NCBI GenBank assembly: GCA_964639225.1
Contig: CAZXCK010000002.1
Location: 5,507-69,506, forward strand
Length of the DNA stretch: 64,000 nt
Reading direction: 5' to 3'
Source of the DNA: an uncultured Anaerolineaceae bacterium
GTDB lineage: Bacteria > Chloroflexota > Anaerolineae > Aggregatilineales > Phototrophicaceae
The translations under genes and the position numbers were made by a program. Positions 10,738 to 23,489 of this stretch are shown here, piece after piece. Under the pieces are notes generated by a model. It saw nothing but the letters and a program-made list of their open reading frames with translations. It searched no databases and had not been told where the DNA came from. Every line of letters starts with the position of its first letter. The stretch's first letter is position 1.

Positions 10738-11301
10738 ATGACCATGATTGGTGCTAACGTCGCCATTATTGTTGATGGGCGAGTTTTGCTGGCCAAGCGC
10801 GAGGACTTCGAAGTATGGTGTTTGCCCGGTGGCATGGCCGAACCAGGCGAATCGCTGGCGCAGACGGCAATCCGAGAGGCACGCGAGGAAACCGGCCTGG
10901 AAGTCGAGTTGACGCGCCTGGTTGGCATCTATTCGCGAGTTGGCGGATATACCGATATTCACGGTGCCCTCTTCACCGCCATCCCGACAGGTGGCACACT
11001 CAAACCACAGATCGAAGAGGTGCTGGACCTGCATTATTTTACGGTCAACGATTTACCGGCTGATATGTTCTGGTGGCATCGGTCGCAGATACACGACGCC
11101 ATGAACTACACAGGCAGCGGTGTAGCTCGTCGCACTCATCTGCCCGACCACGAGCTGAAAGTCAGCTCGCGGCAGGAACTTTACGCGCTGCGCGATCGCT
11201 CCGGCATGTCGCGCGTCCAGTTCTATCACTACTTTTTCGAGCAGGGTGACATACAGGATGTAATCGAAGTCCAGCCGTCCCATGTCGATGGTGCCATCTG
11301 A
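10738..11301 (+). CDS. NUDIX hydrolase
   Basis: Nudix box GGMAEPGESLAQTAIREAREETGL. It starts 4 nt after the thrC stop. Confidence 0.85.
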   Translation: MTMIGANVAIIVDGRVLLAKREDFEVWCLPGGMAEPGESLAQTAIREAREETGLEVELTRLVGIYSRVGGYTDIHGALFTAIPTGGTLKPQIEEVLDLHYFTVNDLPADMFWWHRSQIHDAMNYTGSGVARRTHLPDHELKVSSRQELYALRDRSGMSRVQFYHYFFEQGDIQDVIEVQPSHVDGAI

Positions 11302-11361: not shown

Positions 11362-11736
11362 GTGCAGAGCCAAACTAATCAGCAGATTATGCTCAACGTG
11401 ATGGTGATGAGTGGTGTTGATGATGGCACACTACTGGCCTGCCACAGTGACAGTGATGGCAGCCAGACAGTTGATAAGTGGACGATCACCATCGGCAGGC
11501 GCGATGAAAATGATATCTGCCTGCGTAATGATACTTATGTGTCCCGCCAGCACGCGAAAATCCACTACAAGAACGCGGCCTGGTGGCTGGAAGACTGCGA
11601 AAGCACCAATGGCACATTCATCGAAAATGCCGAGGACTTCTTCGATGACCAGCCGGTAAAAGGTATCATTCAGATCGACGAGGGACAGCTATTCCGTGTG
11701 GGCCGGACATGGCTGCGTATCCAACCAGCAGAGTAA
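11362..11736 (+). CDS. FHA-domain protein
   Basis: TIGRRDENDICLRNDTYVSRQHAKI...STNGTFIEN is a canonical FHA core. GTG start with a GGGAGA RBS 6 nt upstream. Confidence 0.85.
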   Translation: MQSQTNQQIMLNVMVMSGVDDGTLLACHSDSDGSQTVDKWTITIGRRDENDICLRNDTYVSRQHAKIHYKNAAWWLEDCESTNGTFIENAEDFFDDQPVKGIIQIDEGQLFRVGRTWLRIQPAE

Positions 11737-11740
11737 ACAG

Positions 11741-13705
11741 ATGATGTCAAGAATTGCGCTGAAAGACATATTAATTGGTGCCCGGCAGGAAGCCTATCGG
11801 ATGCGCCACTTCTATCTCGGTGCAGAGCATCTTTTTATTGCGCTGCTGGAGATTCAGGGCAGTATTGCCAGCAACATCATCAAAGAATATGGCCTGACGC
11901 CCGAATATGTTATCAATGCCATCCGGCGTAAGACTGGTAAAGGCAGCAAGCACCGCCTGTGGGCAGGGGTCCCGAACACGCCCCGCATGGAAGTCATCCT
12001 GGACATTGCCGGCGACCTGGCCCTGGACCACAATCGTGAGGAAATCGACGAGCGCGATTTGCTGATGGCTATATTCATGGAAGCTGACAGCGTGCCCGTG
12101 CGGGTGCTGCGCGCCCTGGGGCTGGATAAGATCGAGCACCTGACGCAACTGGCCGCCGAGTACACCATCGCAGACGATTCGCACCGACCTTATGTCGATG
12201 TGATCTTTGGGCCGGACTTTGACCCTGTCGCTGCGCTCTCGGTCGAGCAGATGCTGGTGCTGCGCCGCATGTTCTATGGTTACCAACAGATTCGCGTAGA
12301 ACGCCGGCTGATTGGCGGCTACAGCGATGCGCTGCTGCTGATTGTTACGCCATTGCACGCTGATGGGCGTGAGGACGCGGCAGTTGTTGCCAAAATTAAC
12401 CACGTAGACGCCATTCTCGACGAAGCTCGCCGCTATGAAGTGCGTGTGCGTAACAGCCTGCCCCCCCTAACGGCCCGGCTGGAGGACAAACCCGCTACGC
12501 AAGAAGGAACCAACCTCGCAGGTCTGAAATATACCCTGGTTACCAGCGGCAACAACCGGCAGCCAATGGACCTGCGCGCTATTCTACACGACTGGGGACC
12601 CGCACGGCTGGGAATCTGGCTCAAACGCGAGTTATACCCGACATTCGGTCAGTTGTGGTGGCAGCAGAGCCGTCCCTATCGTTTCCAGGCATGGCGTGAA
12701 TACGACTGGCTGCTGCCGCCCATTCTTACTCTTGAACTCGCGAAGGAAAAACAACTGCCGCCACAGGGTTTTACTGTCCGCATGCCACTCAAGCGTTCCA
12801 GGCTGCGCCAGCTTGAATACGGCGATCTGGTGGCGGTGGAAAACTTCATCGTGCAGAAAATCTACCCGGAACGTAAGGCCATTCAACTTGCCGCCGGGCA
12901 TGGCACAGAATCCGCCCACGCATACAAGATCGAAATACGTGGCATTGACCTTGAAGCCAACACTTACTATCGCGGCGAAATCATTGAGCACATCATCGGT
13001 TCAGTGTGGAAGACACGCAACGAACAATTGATGCACGCGGTCCGCAGCCTGGAACCAGACTTTGACCCAACCGGCGAACGTATACCCGGAATCGACGACC
13101 GGGACGACCGCCTGCCCAATCCAATCGTTGCATTCGACGGCCTGCTTGACAGCTATGTCGATGGCACCCTGAGCACCATTCACGGTGATCTGCATCTGGG
13201 CAATATCATGCTCGGCCCCAACAACAGCAGCTTTCTGATCGACTTTGCACATACACGCGATGGTCACACCCTGTTCGACTGGGCCGTGCTGGAGGTCAAT
13301 CTATTATGCGATGTGGTGATGCCAGCAGCCGGTAGCACCTGGGACGATGCACGCGCTGTTGCACAGCAGTTGATGGCGCTTAACGGCGGCCTGCCGCCCC
13401 ATGACCCTGACTCACCAATCACACAGGCGCTGGCGGCAATCGCCAACATCCGAGAGATTGTTCAGGAGTGCCTGGCTGTCGAAAACAAGTGGTCAGAGTA
13501 TTACATCGCAGTCGCGTTCTGTGCGCTGCGAGCGATGATGTGGGACACACTGCCGCACAGCAGCCGCCGACTGATGCTGCTGGTTGCAGCACTGTCTATC
13601 AACGAGCTGCGCACGCGCTTCCGCCCTGGCAGCGACTCCAACCCACACTCACCAGAAGTAACCGACATCAACATGAGCTTTTGGTCGGGCGAGTTAGGCG
13701 GCTGA
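11741..13705 (+). CDS. Clp_N (Clp R-domain) repeat protein fused to an atypical APH/protein-kinase-like domain
   Basis: Two Clp_N-type repeats at the N-terminus (ARQEAYRMRHFYLGAEHLFIALLE; MEVILDIAGDLALDHNREEIDERDLLMAI). The C-terminal part has kinase-fold motifs: GGYSDALLLIV (Gly-rich loop-like), VVAKI (Lys), HGDLHLGNIM (catalytic loop, ~13181) and LIDFAHT (DFG-equivalent). It starts 4 nt after the FHA gene stop. Confidence 0.7.
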   Translation: MMSRIALKDILIGARQEAYRMRHFYLGAEHLFIALLEIQGSIASNIIKEYGLTPEYVINAIRRKTGKGSKHRLWAGVPNTPRMEVILDIAGDLALDHNREEIDERDLLMAIFMEADSVPVRVLRALGLDKIEHLTQLAAEYTIADDSHRPYVDVIFGPDFDPVAALSVEQMLVLRRMFYGYQQIRVERRLIGGYSDALLLIVTPLHADGREDAAVVAKINHVDAILDEARRYEVRVRNSLPPLTARLEDKPATQEGTNLAGLKYTLVTSGNNRQPMDLRAILHDWGPARLGIWLKRELYPTFGQLWWQQSRPYRFQAWREYDWLLPPILTLELAKEKQLPPQGFTVRMPLKRSRLRQLEYGDLVAVENFIVQKIYPERKAIQLAAGHGTESAHAYKIEIRGIDLEANTYYRGEIIEHIIGSVWKTRNEQLMHAVRSLEPDFDPTGERIPGIDDRDDRLPNPIVAFDGLLDSYVDGTLSTIHGDLHLGNIMLGPNNSSFLIDFAHTRDGHTLFDWAVLEVNLLCDVVMPAAGSTWDDARAVAQQLMALNGGLPPHDPDSPITQALAAIANIREIVQECLAVENKWSEYYIAVAFCALRAMMWDTLPHSSRRLMLLVAALSINELRTRFRPGSDSNPHSPEVTDINMSFWSGELGG

Positions 13706-13778: not shown

Positions 13779-16700
13779 ATGGCCTTGCACATGGAAGACC
13801 TAACCGGGCAGGTAATCAAAAGCTACGAGCTACGGGAGCGAATCGGTGAGGGAGGGTTTGGCGCCGTCTATCGTGCCCACCAGCAGATCATAAACCGCGA
13901 AGTAGCGATCAAGGTAATCCTGCCGCGTCACGCCAATCATCCGGATTTTATCCGTCGTTTTGAAACCGAAGCGCAGCTTGTCGCCAGGCTGGAACATCCA
14001 CATATCGTCCCCCTGTATGATTACTGGCGCGAACCAGGCGGCGCTTATCTGGTCATGCGCTGGTTACGCGGTGGCAGCGTCCAGCACTCTGTCAGGCAGA
14101 ATGGCCCCTGGGAACCACGTGCCGTCAGCCATATGCTGAACCAGATCGGCGAGGCGCTGGCGGTCGCCCATCGCCAGGGCATTATTCACCGCGACCTGAA
14201 ACCAGAAAACATCCTGCTGGATGAAAACGAAAACGCCTATCTTTCGGATTTTGGTATCGCCAAGCAGTTGAGCGCCTCCACCGGCATCACACAGAGCAAT
14301 TCAATTGTTGGCTCACCGGCTTACCTGTCACCCGAACAGATCAAAGGTGAGGCCTTATCGCCACAGACCGATATTTACGCCCTCGGCCTGGTATTGTTTG
14401 AGATACTCACTGGCAGCAAACCTTACGACGGCGACTCTGCTGCTACACTGATGTACAAACATCTCAGCGAGCCTGTTCCCGACCTGCACGAGGTGCGTTC
14501 GGATATACCCGACGGACTGAACGCTGTCATCCAGCGGGCCACTGCTAAATCGCCGCAAGATCGTTATCCTGATGTGGTCGAGCTGGCACGCGAATTTCGC
14601 CGCGCAGTCCGCGCGATGGTCAACGAAGACACCATTTATGATACGGCGATCATCACCACTGGCAGCCTGGAAATGCCAGAGCCGGAAAATCCTTATAAAG
14701 GCCTGCGAGCCTTTCAACAGGCGGACTCGCTTGACTTCTTCGGGCGCGATGAACTCGTCCGTTTGATTGTAGCTCGCATGTCTGAGCCTGATCCAATCGC
14801 GCGCTTTCTGGCAGTCGTTGGCCCTAGTGGCAGCGGCAAATCCAGCGTCGTAAAAGCCGGCGTTATACCTGCCCTGCGCCAGAACGCCCTGTCCGGCTCC
14901 GATGACTGGTTCATCGTGGAGATGGTGCCCGGCATCGATCCAATGGAAGAGCTGGAAGCCGCACTGCTGCGCATCGCCGTCAATCCGCCAGACAGCCTGC
15001 TCAACCAGCTTAACGAGGACAGTCGCGGACTGGTACGGGCAGTCAAGCGCGTGCTGCCTGACGACACCGAACTGCTATTGGTCATCGATCAGTTCGAAGA
15101 GCTGTTTACGCTCGTCGATGACGAAGCTCAACGCATTCACTTCATGGACAGTCTGGCCTTGGCAATCACGGAAGTGCGCAGCCGAATACGGGTTATCATC
15201 ACTTTGCGCGCCGATTTCTACGACCGCCCGCTGAACTACAAGCGATTCGGCGATCTCATGCGCTATCGGACGGAGATCGTTCTGCCGCTCCACACCGAAG
15301 AACTGGAACGCGCTATCACCGGACCGGCTGCGCGTGTGGGCCTCTCGCTGGAACCCGGCCTGGTGACAACCATTGTAGCCGACGTTAACGAGCAACCGGG
15401 CGCACTTCCCCTGCTCCAGTATGCACTGACCGAGTTGTTCGAGCGTCGTGAAGGTCACACGCTCACAATGGAGGCCTACAACGAAATTGGCGGCACGATG
15501 GGCGCTCTGGCCCGGCGCGCTGACGAACTCTACGCTGGTCTGGGGCATGATGGCCAGGAAGCCGCCCGCCAGATATTCCTGAGACTGGTTACGCTGGGCG
15601 AAGGTACTGAAGACACCAGACGGCGCGTGCTGCAATCCGAGCTTTTGTCACTTGGCGACGACCCGGACCTGATGGAGATGATACTCGACGCTTTCGGTCG
15701 CTATCGCCTGCTGACGTTCGACCACGACATGACCACCCGTACTGCTACCATCGAAGTAGCGCACGAGGCGCTGATTCGCCAGTGGCAGCAGCTGCGCAAC
15801 TGGCTCGATGACAGCCGAGAAAACCTGCGCACCCAGCGTCGCCTGAATACAGCAGCCGAGGAATGGCTATTATCAGGGTGTGACCCCAGCTTCCTGGCGA
15901 GAGGCGCACGCCTGGAACAGTTCGAAAACTGGCAGCAGACATCCGGCCTGGCGCTCAACGAACACGAAACCGATTTTTTACAGGCGAGCATCGAAGAGCG
16001 TGAGGCACGTATCGCCGAAGAAACTGCTCGGCAGCAGCGCGAAGCTGCACTCGAAAAACGCTCGCAGGATCGGCTGAGGGCACTGGTGGCAGTTATGAGT
16101 GTGGCAACGGTTATCGCGGTGATCCTGGCCGTAATCGCGGTCACGCAGAGCCAGGAAGCCGAGACCGCCCGCACCGAAGCTGAGAGCAGCGCCGAAATTG
16201 CCCAGGCCAACGCCGCCGAGGCGAACGGTCTGGCGCTGGCCGCCAACGCTCGCAACGCATTGATCGAGTACAACCCTGTCCTTGGCCTGACACTGGCACA
16301 GGAAGCCGCCAGCATGATCCAGCCACCACCTCTGGAAGTCATGCGCGTGCTGGCCAGCGCGGCCTATGGCCCGAACGTCCGCGCCCGCTACAGCGATCAC
16401 AATGCCAGTGTAACCGGAGTCACCTTCAACGACGATGGCAACCTTATCGCATCGACTTCGATTGATGGCTCAATTCGCGTATGGGATACGACAACTCACA
16501 CCAGTACGCTGATCATTGAACAACCAGCATTAATCTTTACCCACGCCGAATTCAGTCCGGATAGCACGACACTGCTGGCTGCTGCTGATGATGGTGTCAT
16601 CTACCTGTTCGACACGCAATCCGGGGAGGAAATCCGACGGTATATCGGTCACACTGATCTGGTCACGCAGGTAGCTTTCGCGCCGGATGGTAACACCTTT

Positions 16701-18362
16701 CTGTCAGGGTCGCTGGACCGCACGCTGCGCTACTGGGACATAAATGCGGGGGCGGAAATCCAGCGCTTCGACGATCACAGCGGAGTCATACTCGATGTCG
16801 CCATCAGCCCGGATGGCCGGTTGGCTGCGTCCAGTTCCGGAGACGAGACCATCCTGGACACCAATGATGACATCATCGATCGAACTGTGCGCGTATGGGA
16901 CATCGAAACCGGCGACATCATCCAGACAATCGAACTGGGTGGGGGGTTTGTACGGGCAGTCGATTTCAGCCCGGATAGCAGCCAGATCGTCAGCGGGGCA
17001 TGGACCTCACAAACGGGTGGGCTGGTGCGTCTGTGGGATATTGAAACCGGCACGGAGTTACAGCGCTTTTTCGGCCACACCGACATCATCACCGGTCTGC
17101 GCTTTATGCCAGATGGCCAACAGATCGTTTCGGCCTCGTGGGACCAAACAGTACGCCTGTGGGATATCGATACGGGTATTGAGGTCACGAGATTCGAACA
17201 TTTTGAGGATCGTGTACTGACATTAGCTGTCAGCACGAACGGTGAGCATATTGTCGTCGGCACCGGCGACTACGGCGGCAACGAGATTAATCGCGATGTG
17301 GAAAACGCGACTGACCCAAGTGTCTGGTTAATCGACTTGAGAAACCGTACTCAGGTACGTGAATTTATCGGCAGCGAGGATTGGCTTTGGTCGCTCGACA
17401 TCAGCCCGGATGGTGTCTATGCAGTCACTGGCTCTGGCGCACTGCGCGCCCCATTTGTCGATACTGATGTGCGTGTGTGGCACATCTCTACCGGCGAAAT
17501 CCGCCACCGTCTGCGCGCTCACAGCGAAACGGTCGAGAGCGTTGCTTACAGTCCAGACGGTCAGTGGATTGCTTCTGCTGGTTGGGACGGTCTGGTAATT
17601 CTGTGGGATGCCAACAACGGTATGGAGATTCGGCGTTTTGGCAGCGAGGGTCGCGCCCATGCCGGGCAGGCGAGCGCCGTTGCATTCAGCCCGGACGGAC
17701 GGCTTATCGCATCCGGCGACAGCAACGGCGAAATTATTATCTGGGAAACGGAAACGGGCACTGATATCCACAACATGCAGGGCCACGCTGGACTGATCGA
17801 AGGACTCGTGTTCACACCAGATGGCCAGAGCCTCATATCTGCCTCACGCGATTCTACCATCCGCATGTGGGATGTGGCCACTGGTGCCGAGATTCAGCGT
17901 TTTGCCGGGCATGGTAATCGAGTGAGCGATGTCGCCGTATCGCCAGACGGGACGCAGATATTGTCTGGCGGCTGGGACCTGCGCGTCATCCTGTGGGATT
18001 CTGCCAGTGGTGACATTATCCGCGAATTTGTTGGCCACAGCGGACAGGTGCAGGCAGTCGCCTTCGACGCTACCGGCGCACTGGCGATCAGTGGCGCGGC
18101 AGATACCAGCGTGCGCGTGTGGGATGTGACCACTGGCCAGGAATTGCACCGTCTGGATGGTCACACCAACTGGATTTCGGGAGTACGCTTTACTCCCGAC
18201 GGCGAGTTTGCGCTATCCAGCGGACAGGACAACATCATGCGTCTCTGGCGCGTCCCGCGCTCTGATTCGGAAATCATCGCCTGGGCACAGCAAAACCGCT
18301 ACCTGCGCGACCTTACCTGTGCCGAACGCGAGAAATTTCGCACACCAGACCAATGCGCCTGA
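13779..18362 (+). CDS. Ser/Thr protein kinase - STAND-type P-loop NTPase - TM helix - 14x WD40 multidomain protein
   Basis: 1527 aa. The Hanks kinase motifs are intact (GEGGFGAVY, VAIKV, HRDLKPENIL, DFGIAK, SPEQ). The NTPase has the lead-in NPYKGLRAFQQADSLDFFGRDE, Walker A GPSGSGKSS (~14820-14846) and Walker B LLLVIDQFEE. A hydrophobic helix LRALVAVMSVATVIAVILAVIAV lies at ~16075-16146. Fourteen WD repeats (VRVWD, VRLWD, VILWD...) span ~16390-18250. Alternative ATG at 13791. Confidence 0.9.
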   Translation: MALHMEDLTGQVIKSYELRERIGEGGFGAVYRAHQQIINREVAIKVILPRHANHPDFIRRFETEAQLVARLEHPHIVPLYDYWREPGGAYLVMRWLRGGSVQHSVRQNGPWEPRAVSHMLNQIGEALAVAHRQGIIHRDLKPENILLDENENAYLSDFGIAKQLSASTGITQSNSIVGSPAYLSPEQIKGEALSPQTDIYALGLVLFEILTGSKPYDGDSAATLMYKHLSEPVPDLHEVRSDIPDGLNAVIQRATAKSPQDRYPDVVELAREFRRAVRAMVNEDTIYDTAIITTGSLEMPEPENPYKGLRAFQQADSLDFFGRDELVRLIVARMSEPDPIARFLAVVGPSGSGKSSVVKAGVIPALRQNALSGSDDWFIVEMVPGIDPMEELEAALLRIAVNPPDSLLNQLNEDSRGLVRAVKRVLPDDTELLLVIDQFEELFTLVDDEAQRIHFMDSLALAITEVRSRIRVIITLRADFYDRPLNYKRFGDLMRYRTEIVLPLHTEELERAITGPAARVGLSLEPGLVTTIVADVNEQPGALPLLQYALTELFERREGHTLTMEAYNEIGGTMGALARRADELYAGLGHDGQEAARQIFLRLVTLGEGTEDTRRRVLQSELLSLGDDPDLMEMILDAFGRYRLLTFDHDMTTRTATIEVAHEALIRQWQQLRNWLDDSRENLRTQRRLNTAAEEWLLSGCDPSFLARGARLEQFENWQQTSGLALNEHETDFLQASIEEREARIAEETARQQREAALEKRSQDRLRALVAVMSVATVIAVILAVIAVTQSQEAETARTEAESSAEIAQANAAEANGLALAANARNALIEYNPVLGLTLAQEAASMIQPPPLEVMRVLASAAYGPNVRARYSDHNASVTGVTFNDDGNLIASTSIDGSIRVWDTTTHTSTLIIEQPALIFTHAEFSPDSTTLLAAADDGVIYLFDTQSGEEIRRYIGHTDLVTQVAFAPDGNTFLSGSLDRTLRYWDINAGAEIQRFDDHSGVILDVAISPDGRLAASSSGDETILDTNDDIIDRTVRVWDIETGDIIQTIELGGGFVRAVDFSPDSSQIVSGAWTSQTGGLVRLWDIETGTELQRFFGHTDIITGLRFMPDGQQIVSASWDQTVRLWDIDTGIEVTRFEHFEDRVLTLAVSTNGEHIVVGTGDYGGNEINRDVENATDPSVWLIDLRNRTQVREFIGSEDWLWSLDISPDGVYAVTGSGALRAPFVDTDVRVWHISTGEIRHRLRAHSETVESVAYSPDGQWIASAGWDGLVILWDANNGMEIRRFGSEGRAHAGQASAVAFSPDGRLIASGDSNGEIIIWETETGTDIHNMQGHAGLIEGLVFTPDGQSLISASRDSTIRMWDVATGAEIQRFAGHGNRVSDVAVSPDGTQILSGGWDLRVILWDSASGDIIREFVGHSGQVQAVAFDATGALAISGAADTSVRVWDVTTGQELHRLDGHTNWISGVRFTPDGEFALSSGQDNIMRLWRVPRSDSEIIAWAQQNRYLRDLTCAEREKFRTPDQCA

Positions 18363-18438: not shown

Positions 18439-18508
18439 ACGCATTATTCGACGGGCATATTCGACGCTTTCTATATGTTTTGTTCATCGAATATGCTGAA
18501 TTATGCGT
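18439..18508. repeat. Imperfect inverted repeat upstream of the S41 peptidase gene
   Basis: The left arm ACGCATTATTCGACGGGCATATTCGA (18439-18464) matches the reverse complement of the right arm TCGAATATGCTGAATTATGCGT (18487-18508). The motif ATATTCGA/TCGAATAT occurs three times. Confidence 0.6.
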
Positions 18509-18553
18509 TATAGTTTTCAACTCAAGCAACCTGACGACCAAGGAAACTCAACA

Positions 18554-20908
18554 ATGCGAGATATTATTCTGACTTTGTTCGCATTCGCAATAACTTTAAG
18601 CATCCTTATTCTGCCAGTGCCAGCCAAAGCACAGGAATCGCCAGAATGGCCGGACGCCGAGATTATCAACGATGAAGGTGGGCCAGTGGTCATCCGTGGT
18701 GAGGTCACCTACACCAACCCCTTCTTTACATCAGGTGTTGCCGCCCCCATCATCATACTTGAAGATCAGGCCGGATTTGTCGACCGTAATGAGTATTTCA
18801 TTTTCCCCCTCGAATCCCAGACGCTCGGCCAGATTACCTCGGACTTCTATACCTCGCCGTTCACATATAGCCTGGCGCTGCCCATCCAGCCGCAGGGGAC
18901 CCTGCGCGATGTAAGCCAGAGTGAAACCGGATCAACCGGTGTGATGGTGTTTGCTGTCGCTTACTGGACCAACACCTGGGGAGACCCTTTCCTTGAGGAG
19001 CGCGATATGTACGGTGGTGGCTGGTCCACTGCTTATGCTTCGACGCGAGTCTCATCGGACCCTGAGCGTCTGCGCGAAATCGTTGGTGGCAAGCTTGTCG
19101 TATATGCTCCTGACAATGAGCAGGGTTTTCCAGCCGGATTTGGTGAAGATGGCCTGCTTTTCACCGAGGACGATCCAATAGTGAGGGTACCGCGAGGCTG
19201 GACCGTTGTGGACCTGGAGACCACCCCATTCTCCTTTGATCGCAGCCGCGAACAACAGATTGACCTGCTCGAACCGGACGAATCCGCGCTGGTTGACTAC
19301 AGCGACCTGAGCTTTACTGAAGCCTTCGACAACATGGTGGATAAATTCAGCAAAGAATACGCCTTTACTGAATACTACGACATCGACTGGCAGGCGCTTA
19401 GCGACGAGTTCCGCCCCCGCTTTGAAGAAGCCCAGGCTCAGGGAAACAACAATGCATATCTCAATGCGCTGCGCGAATTTCTGTGGCGCATACCTGATGG
19501 TCATGTCGCGTTATCGCCGTTCACGCCTTTTGTTGACCAGTTCCGCAATGACATAGCGTTAGGTATTGGCCTGTCCATCCGTACCATCGATGACGGTCGC
19601 GTTCTGGTCAGCTATCTGCTGCCAGGTGGACCTGCTCAACAAGCTGGCGTTGAGCTGGGGGCCGAGATCGTCGCCCTCGCTGGCCAACCCATTGAAAATG
19701 CCATCGTCGAAACCGAACCCTGGACTCAGCCATTCAGCACGCCACACAATCGACGGCTGGAGCAGGAACGCTTTGTCACACGATTCCCGGCAGCAACCAG
19801 CTCGGTTAACCTCACGTTTCTAAACCCCGGTGACGATGAACCACAAAAGATTGCGTTGACACCAACTGCTGAGTTCGAAAGTTTCCAGAACGGTCTGCTG
19901 GTACAACCGACTGACGGTTTCGAACTCCCGGTTGAATTCCGTGTGCTGGACGGCGGCCAGGGTTATGTGACAATCAACAGCTTTTTCGACAACACGCTGC
20001 TCAGTATTCAGCTCTGGGAACGCATGATTCGTCAGATGATCGACGCCAATGTACCGGGTATTATCGTTGATCTGCGTCAGAATGGAGGCGGCAACGGCTT
20101 CCTGGCCGATCAGATGTCGGCCTATTTCTTCGAAGAAGCGATCGAACTTGGGCAAAGCGGTGCCTATAACCGCGAACTTGACGCTTTCTTCTTCGATCCG
20201 CGTGGTGTGCGCCGGCTGTATCTACCAGAAGAGAATCTACGCTACCTGGGGCCGGTTGCCGTACTGGTCGGGCCGAGCTGCGCCAGCGCCTGCGAGCGAT
20301 TCGCTTATAACATGTCGCTGAGGGATGGGGCTGAAATCGTGGGCATGTATCCAACGGCGGGCCTCGGAGGCAGTGTATCTGACTTCCGCATGCCCCTGGA
20401 TATGACAATTCGATTCACCACCGGACGCTCGGTTGATATGAGTGGCGAGATTCACATTGAGGGCATCGGCATCGCCCCTACTATTCCCGTTCCGGTCAAT
20501 GAGACGACATTGTTTGCCGACAACGATGTTGAACTGGAATATGGTATCGCTGCGCTCAGCGGTCGTACGCTGGTTCCGTCAATTGATGGCGGTCACCTTG
20601 CGCTGGGTGATGTGGTAAGCGGCACGCTTACGCCTGGCACCCGTGTTCGTTATCGCTATTCACTTGAAGGTGGTGTTAACTTCGACCTGTTCATCGAACC
20701 AGACGACGACATCACGACTATCGTCCGATTTTACGACACAGACGGCAATCTGCTGTTAAGCGATGAAGATCAGCAGCAAGCCAACAGTGGTGGCTCCGCC
20801 TTTTTCAGTATGGGAGCACCAACAGACATGGAATTGATTATAGAAATCGCCAGCTTCGCGGATGATGCCAACGCCAACTTCACATTACGCCTGCTGCCTG
20901 CCGAATGA
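18554..20908 (+). CDS. Secreted S41-family (tail-specific/C-terminal processing) peptidase with PDZ domain and a C-terminal beta-rich domain
   Basis: Signal/anchor ILTLFAFAITLSILILPVPAKA, PDZ-like GIGLSIRTIDDGRVLVSYLLPGGPAQQAGVELGAEIVAL, and S41 core IIVDLRQNGGGNG with VLVGPSCASACE. The ATG at 18554 was chosen; the ORF track start is 18503. Confidence 0.8.
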   Translation: MRDIILTLFAFAITLSILILPVPAKAQESPEWPDAEIINDEGGPVVIRGEVTYTNPFFTSGVAAPIIILEDQAGFVDRNEYFIFPLESQTLGQITSDFYTSPFTYSLALPIQPQGTLRDVSQSETGSTGVMVFAVAYWTNTWGDPFLEERDMYGGGWSTAYASTRVSSDPERLREIVGGKLVVYAPDNEQGFPAGFGEDGLLFTEDDPIVRVPRGWTVVDLETTPFSFDRSREQQIDLLEPDESALVDYSDLSFTEAFDNMVDKFSKEYAFTEYYDIDWQALSDEFRPRFEEAQAQGNNNAYLNALREFLWRIPDGHVALSPFTPFVDQFRNDIALGIGLSIRTIDDGRVLVSYLLPGGPAQQAGVELGAEIVALAGQPIENAIVETEPWTQPFSTPHNRRLEQERFVTRFPAATSSVNLTFLNPGDDEPQKIALTPTAEFESFQNGLLVQPTDGFELPVEFRVLDGGQGYVTINSFFDNTLLSIQLWERMIRQMIDANVPGIIVDLRQNGGGNGFLADQMSAYFFEEAIELGQSGAYNRELDAFFFDPRGVRRLYLPEENLRYLGPVAVLVGPSCASACERFAYNMSLRDGAEIVGMYPTAGLGGSVSDFRMPLDMTIRFTTGRSVDMSGEIHIEGIGIAPTIPVPVNETTLFADNDVELEYGIAALSGRTLVPSIDGGHLALGDVVSGTLTPGTRVRYRYSLEGGVNFDLFIEPDDDITTIVRFYDTDGNLLLSDEDQQQANSGGSAFFSMGAPTDMELIIEIASFADDANANFTLRLLPAE

Positions 20909-21005: not shown

Positions 21006-21365
21006 ATGGTTATGGAATCGAAAATGATACAGGTCAACATAGAAAATATGGGCGACGTCACAATTATTGAACTGGCCGGTGAACTCGACTCCACTTCTGC
21101 GCCGCAAATCCAGGAACAGATTTTGAGTGTCGCCGGGCATGGCGGGAAAATCCTGCTGGACATGTCAAAAGTGACTTATATGTCCAGTGCCGGCCTGCGT
21201 ATTCTGCTGCTCATGTATCGCAGGATCAACGAAAGTGAAAACGTAGGCGAGATCGTGCTGGCCGGACTGAACGACGAACTACAGGACATTATGGCAATAA
21301 CCGGATTTCTCGACTTTTTCATTACTGTCGAGGATCGCAGTGCGGCGTTACGAGTCTGGAACTGA
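21006..21365 (+). CDS. STAS-domain anti-sigma-factor antagonist
   Basis: ILLDMSKVTYMSSAGLRILL and LQDIMAITGFLDFF are typical of SpoIIAA/RsbV-like proteins. Confidence 0.8.
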   Translation: MVMESKMIQVNIENMGDVTIIELAGELDSTSAPQIQEQILSVAGHGGKILLDMSKVTYMSSAGLRILLLMYRRINESENVGEIVLAGLNDELQDIMAITGFLDFFITVEDRSAALRVWN

Positions 21366-21368
21366 TTC

Positions 21369-23489
21369 TTGACGATGCAGCGCCGTATCGATACCGAACC
21401 GACCCATTCTTATGGTAATTATCGCATGCGTATCGGTCGCCCGATTCCGCTGGGCGCGACCATTACCCCGGAAGGCATCAATTTCGCCATTTTTTCGCGG
21501 TATGCTTACGACTGCACCCTGGTTTTGTATGAGGTCGGCGCGCCCTACCCCATAGCCGAAATTCCATTCCCAAAAGAGTTCCGCGTCGGCCATGTATTTA
21601 CCATGATTGTATTCGGTCTGAACCACGAGCAGATCGAATATGGCTTTCGTATGAACGGCCCGTATATTCCGCACGAAGGTCATCGCTTCGACGCCAGCAA
21701 AGTGCTACTTGACCCTTACGCTAAAGTCATAAACGGGCGCAATATCTGGGGACAGCCCACCGCTGGCACCGACGATTACCCGTTTCGAGGATGGTCCATT
21801 CTCGACGATTATGACTGGGGCACCGATCGTCCGCCACAAATCCCCATCGAAGACCTGGTCATCTATGAGATGCATGTGCGTGGTTTTACGCAGCATCCAT
21901 CTGCGGAAGTCAAGTACCCGGGCACGTTTGCCGCTATCCGAGAGAAAATACCCTATCTCAAATCGTTGGGTATCAACGCCATTGAGTTGCTGCCAGTTTT
22001 TGAATTTGATGAACTCGAAAACGACCGCCGCAATCCCCTGACCGGTGAGCCGTTGCTTAATTACTGGGGCTACAGCACGATTGGCTTTTTCGCACCCAAA
22101 GCGGGGTATGCGGCAACTGGCCGTTACGGCATGCAGGTCGATGAGTTCAAAACACTCATCAAAGAGCTGCATCGCAATGGCATCGAGGTCATCCTCGATG
22201 TGGTCTTTAACCATACAGCAGAAGGCAACGAAAAAGGCCGTACGCTGTCTTTCCGGGGTATCGACAACAAGACCTATTACATGCTGGGACCAGATGGCCG
22301 CTATCTGAATTTCAGCGGGACTGGCAACACGATGAACTGCAACAATCCAGTGGTGCGCAGCATGGTCCTGGATTGCCTGCGCTACTGGGTAGCAGAGTAT
22401 CATATCGATGGTTTCCGCTTCGACCTCGCCTCCATCCTGGGCCGCGATCAGAATGGTTTTCCACTGGCAAATCCACCCCTGCTTGAAGCGCTGGCTCACG
22501 ATCCGGTACTGGCAAACTGTAAACTGATCGCCGAAGCCTGGGACGCCGGCGGCATGTACCAGGTTGGCAGTTTCCCAGCATATGGTCGCTGGGCCGAGTG
22601 GAACGGTCGCTACCGCGATAGCATGCGGCGCTTTCTCAAAGGCGACCCTGGCCTGACGTGGGAAGCCGCTGAACGCATCCAGGGTTCACCCGATCTGTAT
22701 GGCGAGCGCGGCGCTGCCGCCTCCATCAACTTTATTACATCCCATGATGGATTCACACTCGCAGACCTGTACACCTACAACAACAAGCACAACACGGCCA
22801 ACGGCGAGGACAACCGCGACGGGGATAACAACAACAATAGCTGGAACTGTGGTGTTGAGGGGCCAACGAATGACCAGGCGGTGACCGCGCTGCGCCGCCG
22901 AATGATCCAGAACGCCATCGCTGTACTGATGGTCAGTCGGGGTATTCCCATGCTGCTGATGGGCGACGAGATGGGTCGCAGCCAACAAGGCAACAACAAT
23001 GCCTACTGCCACGACAGCGAGCTAACCTGGCTGGACTGGTCTCTACTCAGGCAGAACGCTGACATGGTCGAGTTCACCCGCAATTGTATCGCCTTTCGTC
23101 ACGCCCATCCTGTTCTGCGCAGCCCACGACATTTCGTCCACCGGGACATCGCCGGCAGTGGTTACGCAGATATCACCTGGCATGGCACCCGCGCCTGGCA
23201 CGCCGACTGGGCCGACTATGTGCGCACGCTGGCCTTTATGCTATGCGGTGAGCATGTACCCGACGATCAGCAGCCCGACGATTACATCTACGTTGCTCTG
23301 AATATGCACTGGGAGCACCACGTCTTCGAGCTGCCCAACCTGCCAGAAGGCATGTACTGGCATCGATTCGTTAACACCAGCGAACATGAACCACTCAAAA
23401 CCTGCCCCCCAGGAAACGAACCATACCTGGACGATCAGCACTATCATTTGCTGGGCGCGCGGTCGGTTGCTATTCTGGTAGGCAGGTAA
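21369..23489 (+). CDS. glgX: Glycogen debranching enzyme (isoamylase, GH13)
   Basis: GH13 conserved regions DVVFNHT, GFRFDLASIL, AEAWD and FITSHDGFTL. TTG at 21369 or ATG at 21375, 3-9 nt after the STAS gene stop. Confidence 0.9.
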   Translation: MTMQRRIDTEPTHSYGNYRMRIGRPIPLGATITPEGINFAIFSRYAYDCTLVLYEVGAPYPIAEIPFPKEFRVGHVFTMIVFGLNHEQIEYGFRMNGPYIPHEGHRFDASKVLLDPYAKVINGRNIWGQPTAGTDDYPFRGWSILDDYDWGTDRPPQIPIEDLVIYEMHVRGFTQHPSAEVKYPGTFAAIREKIPYLKSLGINAIELLPVFEFDELENDRRNPLTGEPLLNYWGYSTIGFFAPKAGYAATGRYGMQVDEFKTLIKELHRNGIEVILDVVFNHTAEGNEKGRTLSFRGIDNKTYYMLGPDGRYLNFSGTGNTMNCNNPVVRSMVLDCLRYWVAEYHIDGFRFDLASILGRDQNGFPLANPPLLEALAHDPVLANCKLIAEAWDAGGMYQVGSFPAYGRWAEWNGRYRDSMRRFLKGDPGLTWEAAERIQGSPDLYGERGAAASINFITSHDGFTLADLYTYNNKHNTANGEDNRDGDNNNNSWNCGVEGPTNDQAVTALRRRMIQNAIAVLMVSRGIPMLLMGDEMGRSQQGNNNAYCHDSELTWLDWSLLRQNADMVEFTRNCIAFRHAHPVLRSPRHFVHRDIAGSGYADITWHGTRAWHADWADYVRTLAFMLCGEHVPDDQQPDDYIYVALNMHWEHHVFELPNLPEGMYWHRFVNTSEHEPLKTCPPGNEPYLDDQHYHLLGARSVAILVGR

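Follow-up and report, generated by a model that had tools for sequence, protein, structure and literature searches.

TCAD9 is listed among the catalogued kinase-like families, and an active kinase related to the aminoglycoside phosphotransferases (APH) is mentioned among the effector domains of the 'ternary' conflict systems of Kaur et al. (PMC7159879, PMC8195603); we take this kinase to be TCAD9, a name which these papers do not use. The names TCAD9, ClpN and nSTAND1 are absent from both the main text and the supplement of Kaur et al. 2020 (PMC7159879). Here we describe a TCAD9 protein encoded in a stretch of 64,000 nucleotides from an uncultured Anaerolineaceae bacterium (assembly GCA_964639225.1, contig CAZXCK010000002.1), referred to below as the window. 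Its gene encodes a ClpC-type N-domain (Clp_N) fused to a TCAD9 domain and directly follows the gene of a small FHA protein. Compared with the conflict systems of Kaur et al. to which we assign TCAD9 in this way (vWA-MoxR-VMAP, iSTAND2, TERNS3; PMC7159879, PMC8195603), the window protein matches the family profile over its full length and carries APH-type motifs, and like the TCAD9 family it co-occurs with TIR, serine/threonine kinase, FHA and STAND (nSTAND1) modules in filamentous, multicellular-type bacteria. Unlike the vWA-MoxR-VMAP systems, it has no vWA, MoxR or VMAP gene nearby, occupies a core-genome site, has an obligate FHA partner and bears a Clp_N head; the vWA-MoxR-VMAP association is the origin of the TCAD9 name rather than a requirement of the profile, and it does not occur here.

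Other described systems resemble parts of this pair. The N-domain of ClpC receives adaptors and ligands (MecA, McsB/phospho-arginine, MdfA/YjbA; structures 2y1r, 5hbn and 8b3s), and its binding of phospho-arginine involves two pockets that require E32 and E106 (PMC12583610). The window protein has the same double Clp_N fold (template modelling (TM) score of ~0.8, 22-25% identity), which is likewise predicted to serve a small partner protein as its dock; unlike ClpC, it has no AAA+ or ClpP-coupled machinery, an Arg replaces the Glu of the second pocket, and the predicted ligand is an FHA beta-hairpin. A kinase gene together with a small FHA protein whose phosphothreonine pocket is intact is also found in PknG/PknB-GarA(OdhI) and in PpkA-Fha1-PppA of type VI secretion; unlike in these systems, the window kinase has an APH and not a Hanks fold, the FHA protein has no GarA-like tail, and no PP2C phosphatase gene is adjacent. 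Enzymes of the APH/choline kinase (ChoK) fold, including the class V lanthipeptide kinases LxmK (9dk1) and TvaE (8jsu) as well as YihE/SrkA (1zyl), share the Lys/Glu/HxDxxxxN/D-F constellation and match the window kinase with Z scores of 8.6-12.5. They differ from it in identity (7-17% among the listed matches) and in the extra subdomain of ~120-190 residues which TCAD9 holds between hinge region and catalytic loop; moreover, unlike the lanthipeptide kinases, the window locus has no lanthipeptide or antibiotic context.

The two genes and the parts of the kinase protein lie in the window as follows.

11362-11736, + strand: FHA gene, partner of the kinase (124 residues; stop codon TAA at 11734-11736; Pfam FHA match at E 1e-15)
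11741-13705, + strand: Clp_N-TCAD9 gene (ATG at 11741, stop codon at 13703-13705; 654 residues plus stop)
11753-12175, + strand: ClpC-like N-domain of two Clp_N repeats, residues ~5-145, from Pfam, alignment, fold and complex model
12287-13537, + strand: TCAD9 (PF19974) kinase-like domain, residues 183-599, at 110.4 bits (cut-off 40)
12392-12394, + strand: codon of K218 (in VVAKI), the ATP-anchoring beta3 Lys, present in 121/121 close homologues and 128/131 distant TCAD9 proteins
12422-12424, + strand: E228, the predicted alphaC partner of K218, present in 121/121 close homologues and 132/132 distant TCAD9 proteins
12638-13105, + strand: family-specific insertion, residues ~300-455, from secondary structure, predicted local distance difference test (pLDDT) and conservation
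13181-13204, + strand: catalytic loop H481-G-D483-L-H-L-G-N488 (Brenner motif HxDxxxxN), with D483 in 120/121 and N488 in 121/121 close homologues
13238-13246, + strand: I500-D501-F502, with the equivalent of the metal-binding Asp of DFG (D501 in 121/121 close and 138/144 distant proteins)
13613-13702, + strand: disordered C-terminal tail (pLDDT <50, residues 631-654) with the motif [DE]x[TS][DE]-hydrophobic, here E-V-T-D-I

Overall, the best explanation that we can offer is an FHA-docked Clp_N-TCAD9 phospho-signalling unit, to which we give about an even chance of being right. The FHA and Clp_N-TCAD9 genes would be translationally coupled and would produce a two-protein unit, in which TCAD9, with its predicted APH/choline-kinase (eukaryotic-like kinase) type of fold, would, judging from its residues, be competent for catalysis. 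The ClpC-type N-domain, unlinked from an AAA+ unfoldase, is predicted by modelling to dock the small FHA protein in a manner akin to ClpC adaptors. The FHA protein, with its phosphothreonine pocket intact, would then recruit the kinase either to proteins that already bear a phosphothreonine set by a Hanks kinase or to the tail of the kinase itself in its phosphorylated form, and the recruited TCAD9 domain may phosphorylate a nearby protein or peptide site. Additions made in particular lineages (a TIR domain or gene, AAA_35 or STAND NTPases, an STK-nSTAND1-WD40 protein) might carry the output, as their association suggests, to a conflict, stress or regulated cell-death pathway.

The tight coupling that had been noticed between the two genes is borne out by their coordinates: the spacer from the FHA stop codon to the ATG of the kinase gene is 4 nucleotides in the window. 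We collected 62 loci from species-representative genomes, 55 of which encode long Clp_N-TCAD9 relatives, one of them without an upstream flank. An FHA gene adjoins the kinase gene in 53 of the 54 loci with a readable flank, a count that amounts to few independent events, as the loci with Clp_N and FHA are largely one orthologous group. The spacer ranges from -11 to +11 nucleotides in 48/52 pairs, and the adjacency outlasts rearrangement, the FHA gene being found downstream of the kinase gene in two loci (L054 and L067). No FHA gene was found in the fetched flanks of 14 TCAD9 loci without Clp_N; a divergent Clp_N-bearing locus (L068) is also without one. Because FHA genes adjoin the Clp_N-bearing genes and none stands beside the 14 Clp_N-less TCAD9 genes, FHA tracks Clp_N rather than TCAD9.

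The FHA protein has the Gly-Arg, Ser-x-x-His and Asn-Gly residues by which FHA domains (PF00498) bind phosphopeptides. Across 35 orthologues, the phosphothreonine-binding positions G45-R46, S61-R62-x-H64 and N83-G84 are all invariant except G84, which is conserved in at least 90%, and the beta1-beta2 hairpin M16-S17-G18-x-x-D21-G22 is invariant as well. A GarA-like phospho-acceptor tail was considered and rejected: there is none, and many of the FHA proteins start right at beta1.

The complex of Clp_N with FHA was modelled in three runs, which scored 0.77, 0.75 and 0.78, the best of three controls reaching 0.34. This mark was attained by 58 of 80 solved complexes versus 2 of 110 mismatched pairs, a benchmark that is only roughly applicable here since we used our own alignments. 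At least 89% of the contacts were common to the runs, with a partner pLDDT of at least 84. To our knowledge no Clp_N-FHA complex has been solved, so that recall from a known structure is unlikely in the model. The predicted interface comprises residues 23-28, 60-85 and 116-125 of Clp_N and, in FHA, the hairpin (residues 14-23) plus residues 55-59, 93-94, 115 and 117. Its tightest pairs bring T80, P81 and R82 of a conserved P-N-T-P-R turn against D20, D21 and G22 of FHA, and many of the predicted interface residues are invariant in their own family, be it Clp_N or FHA. The residues of the phosphothreonine pocket lie outside the confident contacts, which by itself does not prove the pocket to be free. 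By placing the FHA hairpin on Clp_N, the complex model makes the FHA protein the likely reader and Clp_N its dock.

The double Clp_N repeat proposed in the earlier note is recovered both by alignment and by fold. Pfam scores repeat 1 only (PF02861, residues 14-62, E 3e-12); at the sequence level, residues 6-131 align across both repeats of ClpC N-domains, with E 1e-14 to plant ClpC1. In the full-length AlphaFold model (pLDDT 79.9), the two tandem repeats form one pseudo-symmetric helical domain that superposes on ClpC N-domains (Foldseek E 8e-8, target TM 0.78-0.82). This head stands without an AAA+ module, as had been observed: no AAA+ family in Pfam matches the 654-residue protein at E <= 0.01, and no AAA+ modules follow the N-domain as they do in Clp/Hsp100 unfoldases. 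The NCBIfam matches to ClpA, ClpB and ClpK are limited to the N-domain and fall far under their cut-offs. With regard to phospho-arginine, E29 is aligned to ClpC E32 of pocket 1 and is invariant among homologues; the position of ClpC E106 in pocket 2 is Arg105, with E104 one residue before it, and the position matching ClpC T7 is not conserved among homologues. The protein thus has one of the two pocket glutamates of a ClpC-type receptor, and a ClpC-like two-pocket phospho-arginine reader is, from these residues, not supported, because the E106 position is Arg105 and the T7 position is unconserved.

For the C-terminal region, Pfam gives a near-complete TCAD9 match (positions 2-428 of the 429-position profile) and a short APH match (PF01636, residues 435-518, 30.5 bits against a cut-off of 23.2); together with Clp_N, these are the three Pfam families on the protein. 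Foldseek, run on the full-length model, gave little besides ClpC N-domains; the kinase came into view once residues 150-632 were refolded alone. The refolded domain (35 homologues in the alignment) reached a pLDDT of 83 and a predicted TM score of 0.85, and it was compared exhaustively with 48,161 Protein Data Bank (PDB) representatives using VIA-align. The top 34 PDB matches are all aminoglycoside, choline, homoserine (type II), MTR, fructosamine, sugar or lanthipeptide kinases or YihE; the best of them is 3csv (Z 12.5, 269 residues aligned, root-mean-square deviation 4.8), and Foldseek gave a probability of 0.99 for MTR kinase and APH. Structure prediction therefore bears out the suspected kinase/APH-like fold and places it, as a bilobal kinase, in the APH/ChoK branch. 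A sequence profile search of solved structures aligned only the catalytic-loop stretch (best E 0.0086), with the loops of MAP kinase, APH and maltokinase. The protein is not of the Hanks type by Pfam, as there is no Pkinase (PF00069) match at E <= 0.01, and no activation segment or APE motif of the eukaryotic protein kinase (ePK) type is evident in the TCAD9 domain.

All the motifs quoted when the gene was singled out were found again, namely GGYSDALLLIV (residues 192-202), VVAKI (215-219), HGDLHLGNIM (481-490) and IDFAHT (500-505). The beta3 Lys, the alphaC Glu, the HxDxxxxN loop and the metal-binding Asp are all in place; K218, E228, D483, N488 and D501 are conserved at 99-100% in 121 close homologues and at 88-100% in ~145 distant TCAD9 representatives. 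Such conservation is the pattern of an active enzyme, and TCAD9 is apparently an active atypical kinase. The disordered tail that follows the kinase domain is a speculative candidate for a phospho-acceptor which FHA might read; its motif is found in 83/115 homologues and is retained in the linker of the TIR-fused forms described below.

The insertion within the kinase domain is predicted to consist of helices plus a subdomain of ~7 beta-strands. Its motifs F315, E320-Y321-D322, P326-P327 and R411-G412-E413 are invariant among homologues, and F315, E320-Y321-D322 and P326 are largely retained in the wider TCAD9 family. The 3csv match spans 462 residues of the model and leaves ~190 of them unpaired, and the APH profile leaves ~120 extra residues between the N-lobe and residue 435, which puts the size of the insertion at roughly 120-190 residues. 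The large insert was thus rightly noticed, at a size overestimated as ~250 residues, and it is not peculiar to the window protein: the profile of TCAD9 extends over all of the C-terminal region, which makes the insert a built-in trait of this family. An Atlas feature search with residues 325-440 of the insertion gave no usable match.

We then consider how widespread the architecture is. A search of 5.8 billion proteins yielded 444 homologue clusters at E <= 0.001, and Clp_N is joined to TCAD9 in all of the 120 that were listed; few listed clusters bear an organism name, and nearly all of these are metagenome-assembled genomes (MAGs) of Chloroflexota/Anaerolineae. Some homologues carry the JGI name 'Ternary complex associated domain 9/Clp amino terminal domain'. 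TCAD9 itself has 2888 cluster representatives at E <= 0.001 and 427 at E <= 1e-30 in a profile search of 1.84 billion representatives. Its architectures include Pkinase-TCAD9, with or without AAA_35, SH3 or PD40 propellers, as well as AAA_35-HATPase_c_4-Clp_N-TCAD9, ParA/CbiA-Clp_N-TCAD9, TCAD9-TPR and Clp_N-TCAD9-TIR. The fusion, called unusual in the earlier note, is thus real and conserved, and rather than rare it is a standard architecture. That note had also left room for the family being already annotated and characterised: it is annotated, through TCAD9 and the JGI names, and, as far as we found, not experimentally characterised. There is no NCBIfam model for the Clp_N-TCAD9 family, and in the literature searched we found no experimental study of any TCAD9 member and, in the open literature, no published description of an FHA + Clp_N-TCAD9 operon; Clp domains and APH kinases go unmentioned in a 2026 preprint on ParA immunity. 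Clp_N-TCAD9 is, as far as we found, an annotated, populous and experimentally uncharacterised architecture; our additions are the Clp_N-FHA interface as predicted by modelling, the tie of FHA to Clp_N, a fixed syntenic site and the presence or absence of a STAND gene.

Several partners of the pair vary among relatives, and one of them lies directly downstream in the window.

13779-18362, + strand: accessory neighbour of STK-nSTAND1 NTPase-WD40 architecture, 1527 residues, from Pfam and motifs

The Hanks-kinase motifs of this protein (GxGxxG, VAIK, HRDLKPEN and DFG) are intact, as is its P-loop GPSGSGKS. Its gene is directly downstream of the kinase gene only in the window, in L079 (10043-14620), a relative 87% identical to the window, and in L002-L006; in the window and L079 it stands between the kinase gene and an S41 peptidase gene. 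L080 has the gene order of the window from the nuo genes to glgX minus the STK-nSTAND1-WD40 gene (junction L080:9944-10016). This absence at an otherwise identical junction, together with the restricted distribution, led us to reject the protein as an obligate third component; it is a recurrent accessory and not a core part.

Other relatives carry a TIR domain. Orthologues of ~965 residues with a C-terminal TIR_2 domain comprise P0102 (L063:8001-10907), P0072, P0062, P0065, P0068, P0073, P0085 and P0093, and these stand at the same thr/met-leu syntenic site as the window pair with an FHA gene upstream (e.g., P0102 in L063, and P0072). The locus L067:1742-6332 has, in this order, a TIR gene, a ParA/CbiA-Clp_N-TCAD9 gene and an FHA gene; the fusion protein (P0126) shares 46% identity with the window protein, and with its HGNLH catalytic loop (Asp to Asn) and degenerate Gly-rich loop it is perhaps a pseudokinase variant. 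The locus L068:399-6993 combines a TIR-AAA_35 gene with an overlapping AAA_35-HATPase_c_4-Clp_N-TCAD9 gene (1410 residues), and a stand-alone Pkinase gene lies downstream in convergent orientation. TIR, STAND, AAA_35 and Hanks-kinase partners belong to the vocabulary of the conflict systems of Kaur et al. (PMC7159879, PMC8195603), and because the partners share this vocabulary, by association a conflict, stress or cell-death pathway is suggested as the output.

The pair is single-copy in the window genome. Among the genomes sampled, strong orthologues are restricted to the GTDB family of the window, where 7 of the 8 others have one. The site is fixed in relatives: a thrB-like GHMP kinase, a thrC-like PALP protein and a Cys/Met pyridoxal phosphate (PLP) enzyme, then FHA and Clp_N-TCAD9, then leuB, leuA, leuD and leuC. 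The locus is resident and vertically kept, and it is not an obvious mobile defence island. A class-wide core gene was considered and rejected, as no more than 17 of the 301 genomes sampled from the class, counting G000, gave a match at E <= 1e-20.

A number of observations weigh against an FHA-docked phospho-signalling unit with a conflict-related output. A control in which FHA was kept and chain 1 was swapped for an unrelated protein still scored 0.34, the FHA adjacency stems from few independent events, and TIR or STAND partners are found in only a minority of loci. The locus is flanked by the amino-acid operons thrB-thrC-metB and leuB-A-D-C with no recognisable defence island; there is no vWA-MoxR-VMAP gene within ~8 kb of the window gene, and related loci are likewise without vWA and MoxR. 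In PADLOC-DB 2.0, neither the kinase nor the FHA protein matches any family (0 for each); the STK domain downstream is the only one with matches, to the PD-T4-6 and Mad6 kinase models. Moreover, small-molecule kinases predominate among the closest solved structures, and low-molecular-weight substrates were proposed for the APH-like kinases of conflict systems (Kaur et al. 2020, PMC7159879). These last two points also favour another explanation, namely that TCAD9 is a small-molecule kinase acting on a metabolite, an antibiotic or a nucleotide-derived signal, which Clp_N and FHA merely regulate or localise. Its best structural neighbours are indeed aminoglycoside, choline, homoserine, MTR, fructosamine and sugar kinases, the APH model scores over its cut-off, and the ePK-type activation segment and APE motif are not in evidence. 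However, Clp_N and FHA, which are protein-protein modules, are obligately attached, protein and peptide kinases are among the matches too (LxmK, TvaE, YihE, Rio1, FN3K), and the fusions with Hanks kinases, TPR, SH3 and beta-propellers favour signalling at the protein level; we regard a small-molecule kinase as unlikely.

The constant placement of the pair throughout the family, with thrB-thrC-metB on one side and the leu operon on the other, would fit a regulator of housekeeping metabolism like PknG-GarA/OdhI, in which the kinase controls FHA and FHA regulates metabolic enzymes encoded nearby, and so would the single copy here, the retention within the GTDB family and a weak OdhI match of the FHA protein (31.6 bits, far under the cut-off of 200). 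Against such a switch, conserved synteny by itself is no proof of functional linkage, the FHA proteins have no GarA-like N-terminal phospho-acceptor Thr tail, TIR, STAND and AAA_35 additions would be unexpected, and most of the class has no such orthologue; the switch seems to us quite improbable. The earlier note had envisaged a reader and a writer in a single chain, and its interpretation of the fusion is partly supported: what it observed at 11741-13705 (two Clp_N repeats, no AAA+ module, a kinase-like C-terminus, FHA upstream) is confirmed, and the single chain that reads and writes is, as stated, not supported. As we spell it out, Clp_N itself would do the reading, of phospho-arginine like ClpC or of another phospho-mark, and the fused kinase the writing. 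The domain is nearest to ClpC N-domains, including the phospho-arginine-bound structure 5hbn, and E29 is invariant; however, the Glu of GxEH is common to Clp_N repeats generally and hence not diagnostic, the E106 position holds an Arg, the T7 position is unconserved, and the FHA hairpin occupies the Clp_N surface in the complex model, all of which makes this very improbable.

Returning to the FHA-docked Clp_N-TCAD9 unit, a more specific version of it would be a resident sensor or switch of a cell-death or immunity pathway in filamentous Chloroflexota, with Clp_N as socket, FHA reading phosphothreonine made by a Hanks kinase (e.g., that of STK-nSTAND1-WD40) and the APH-fold kinase licensing an effector, which would be the STAND protein in the window and, in certain lineages, a TIR NADase that is fused to the kinase or encoded beside it. 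We put this forward tentatively and consider it doubtful; if true, it would give TCAD9 kinases a first function and Clp_N and FHA a new type of interaction. The operon is in any case a compact, conserved two-protein entry point to the TCAD9 kinases and their 2888 representatives. The predictions that it offers are that the kinase is active, that Clp_N binds the FHA hairpin through the residues named above and that the phosphothreonine pocket of FHA targets the kinase; the TIR-fused orthologues could tie kinase activity to a measurable NADase output. The complex model would also make a case for Clp_N working outside AAA+ unfoldases as a general adaptor socket.

The neighbours within ~8 kb in the window are Aldedh, GHMP kinase, PALP, NUDIX, FHA, STK-nSTAND1-WD40, S41 peptidase and GlgX genes. 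The NUDIX hydrolase gene (10738-11301) lies between the thrC-like and FHA genes in the window, L079, L080, L003 and L005; in most other relatives its place is taken by the gene of the Cys/Met PLP enzyme, on the opposite strand. Downstream, the order of an S41 peptidase-PDZ protein, a STAS protein and GlgX (18503-20908 and 21006-23489 in the window) is shared by L079 and L080. This order seems to have no relation to the kinase pair, since none of the 62 genome loci was matched by the S41 query. Finally, a contig labelled as a Pleurocapsa minor MAG (L048, JAHHHY010000001.1) carries the full Anaerolineae-type arrangement of GHMP kinase, PALP, FHA and Clp_N-TCAD9; this cyanobacterial-labelled contig could be a binning contaminant or a transfer.

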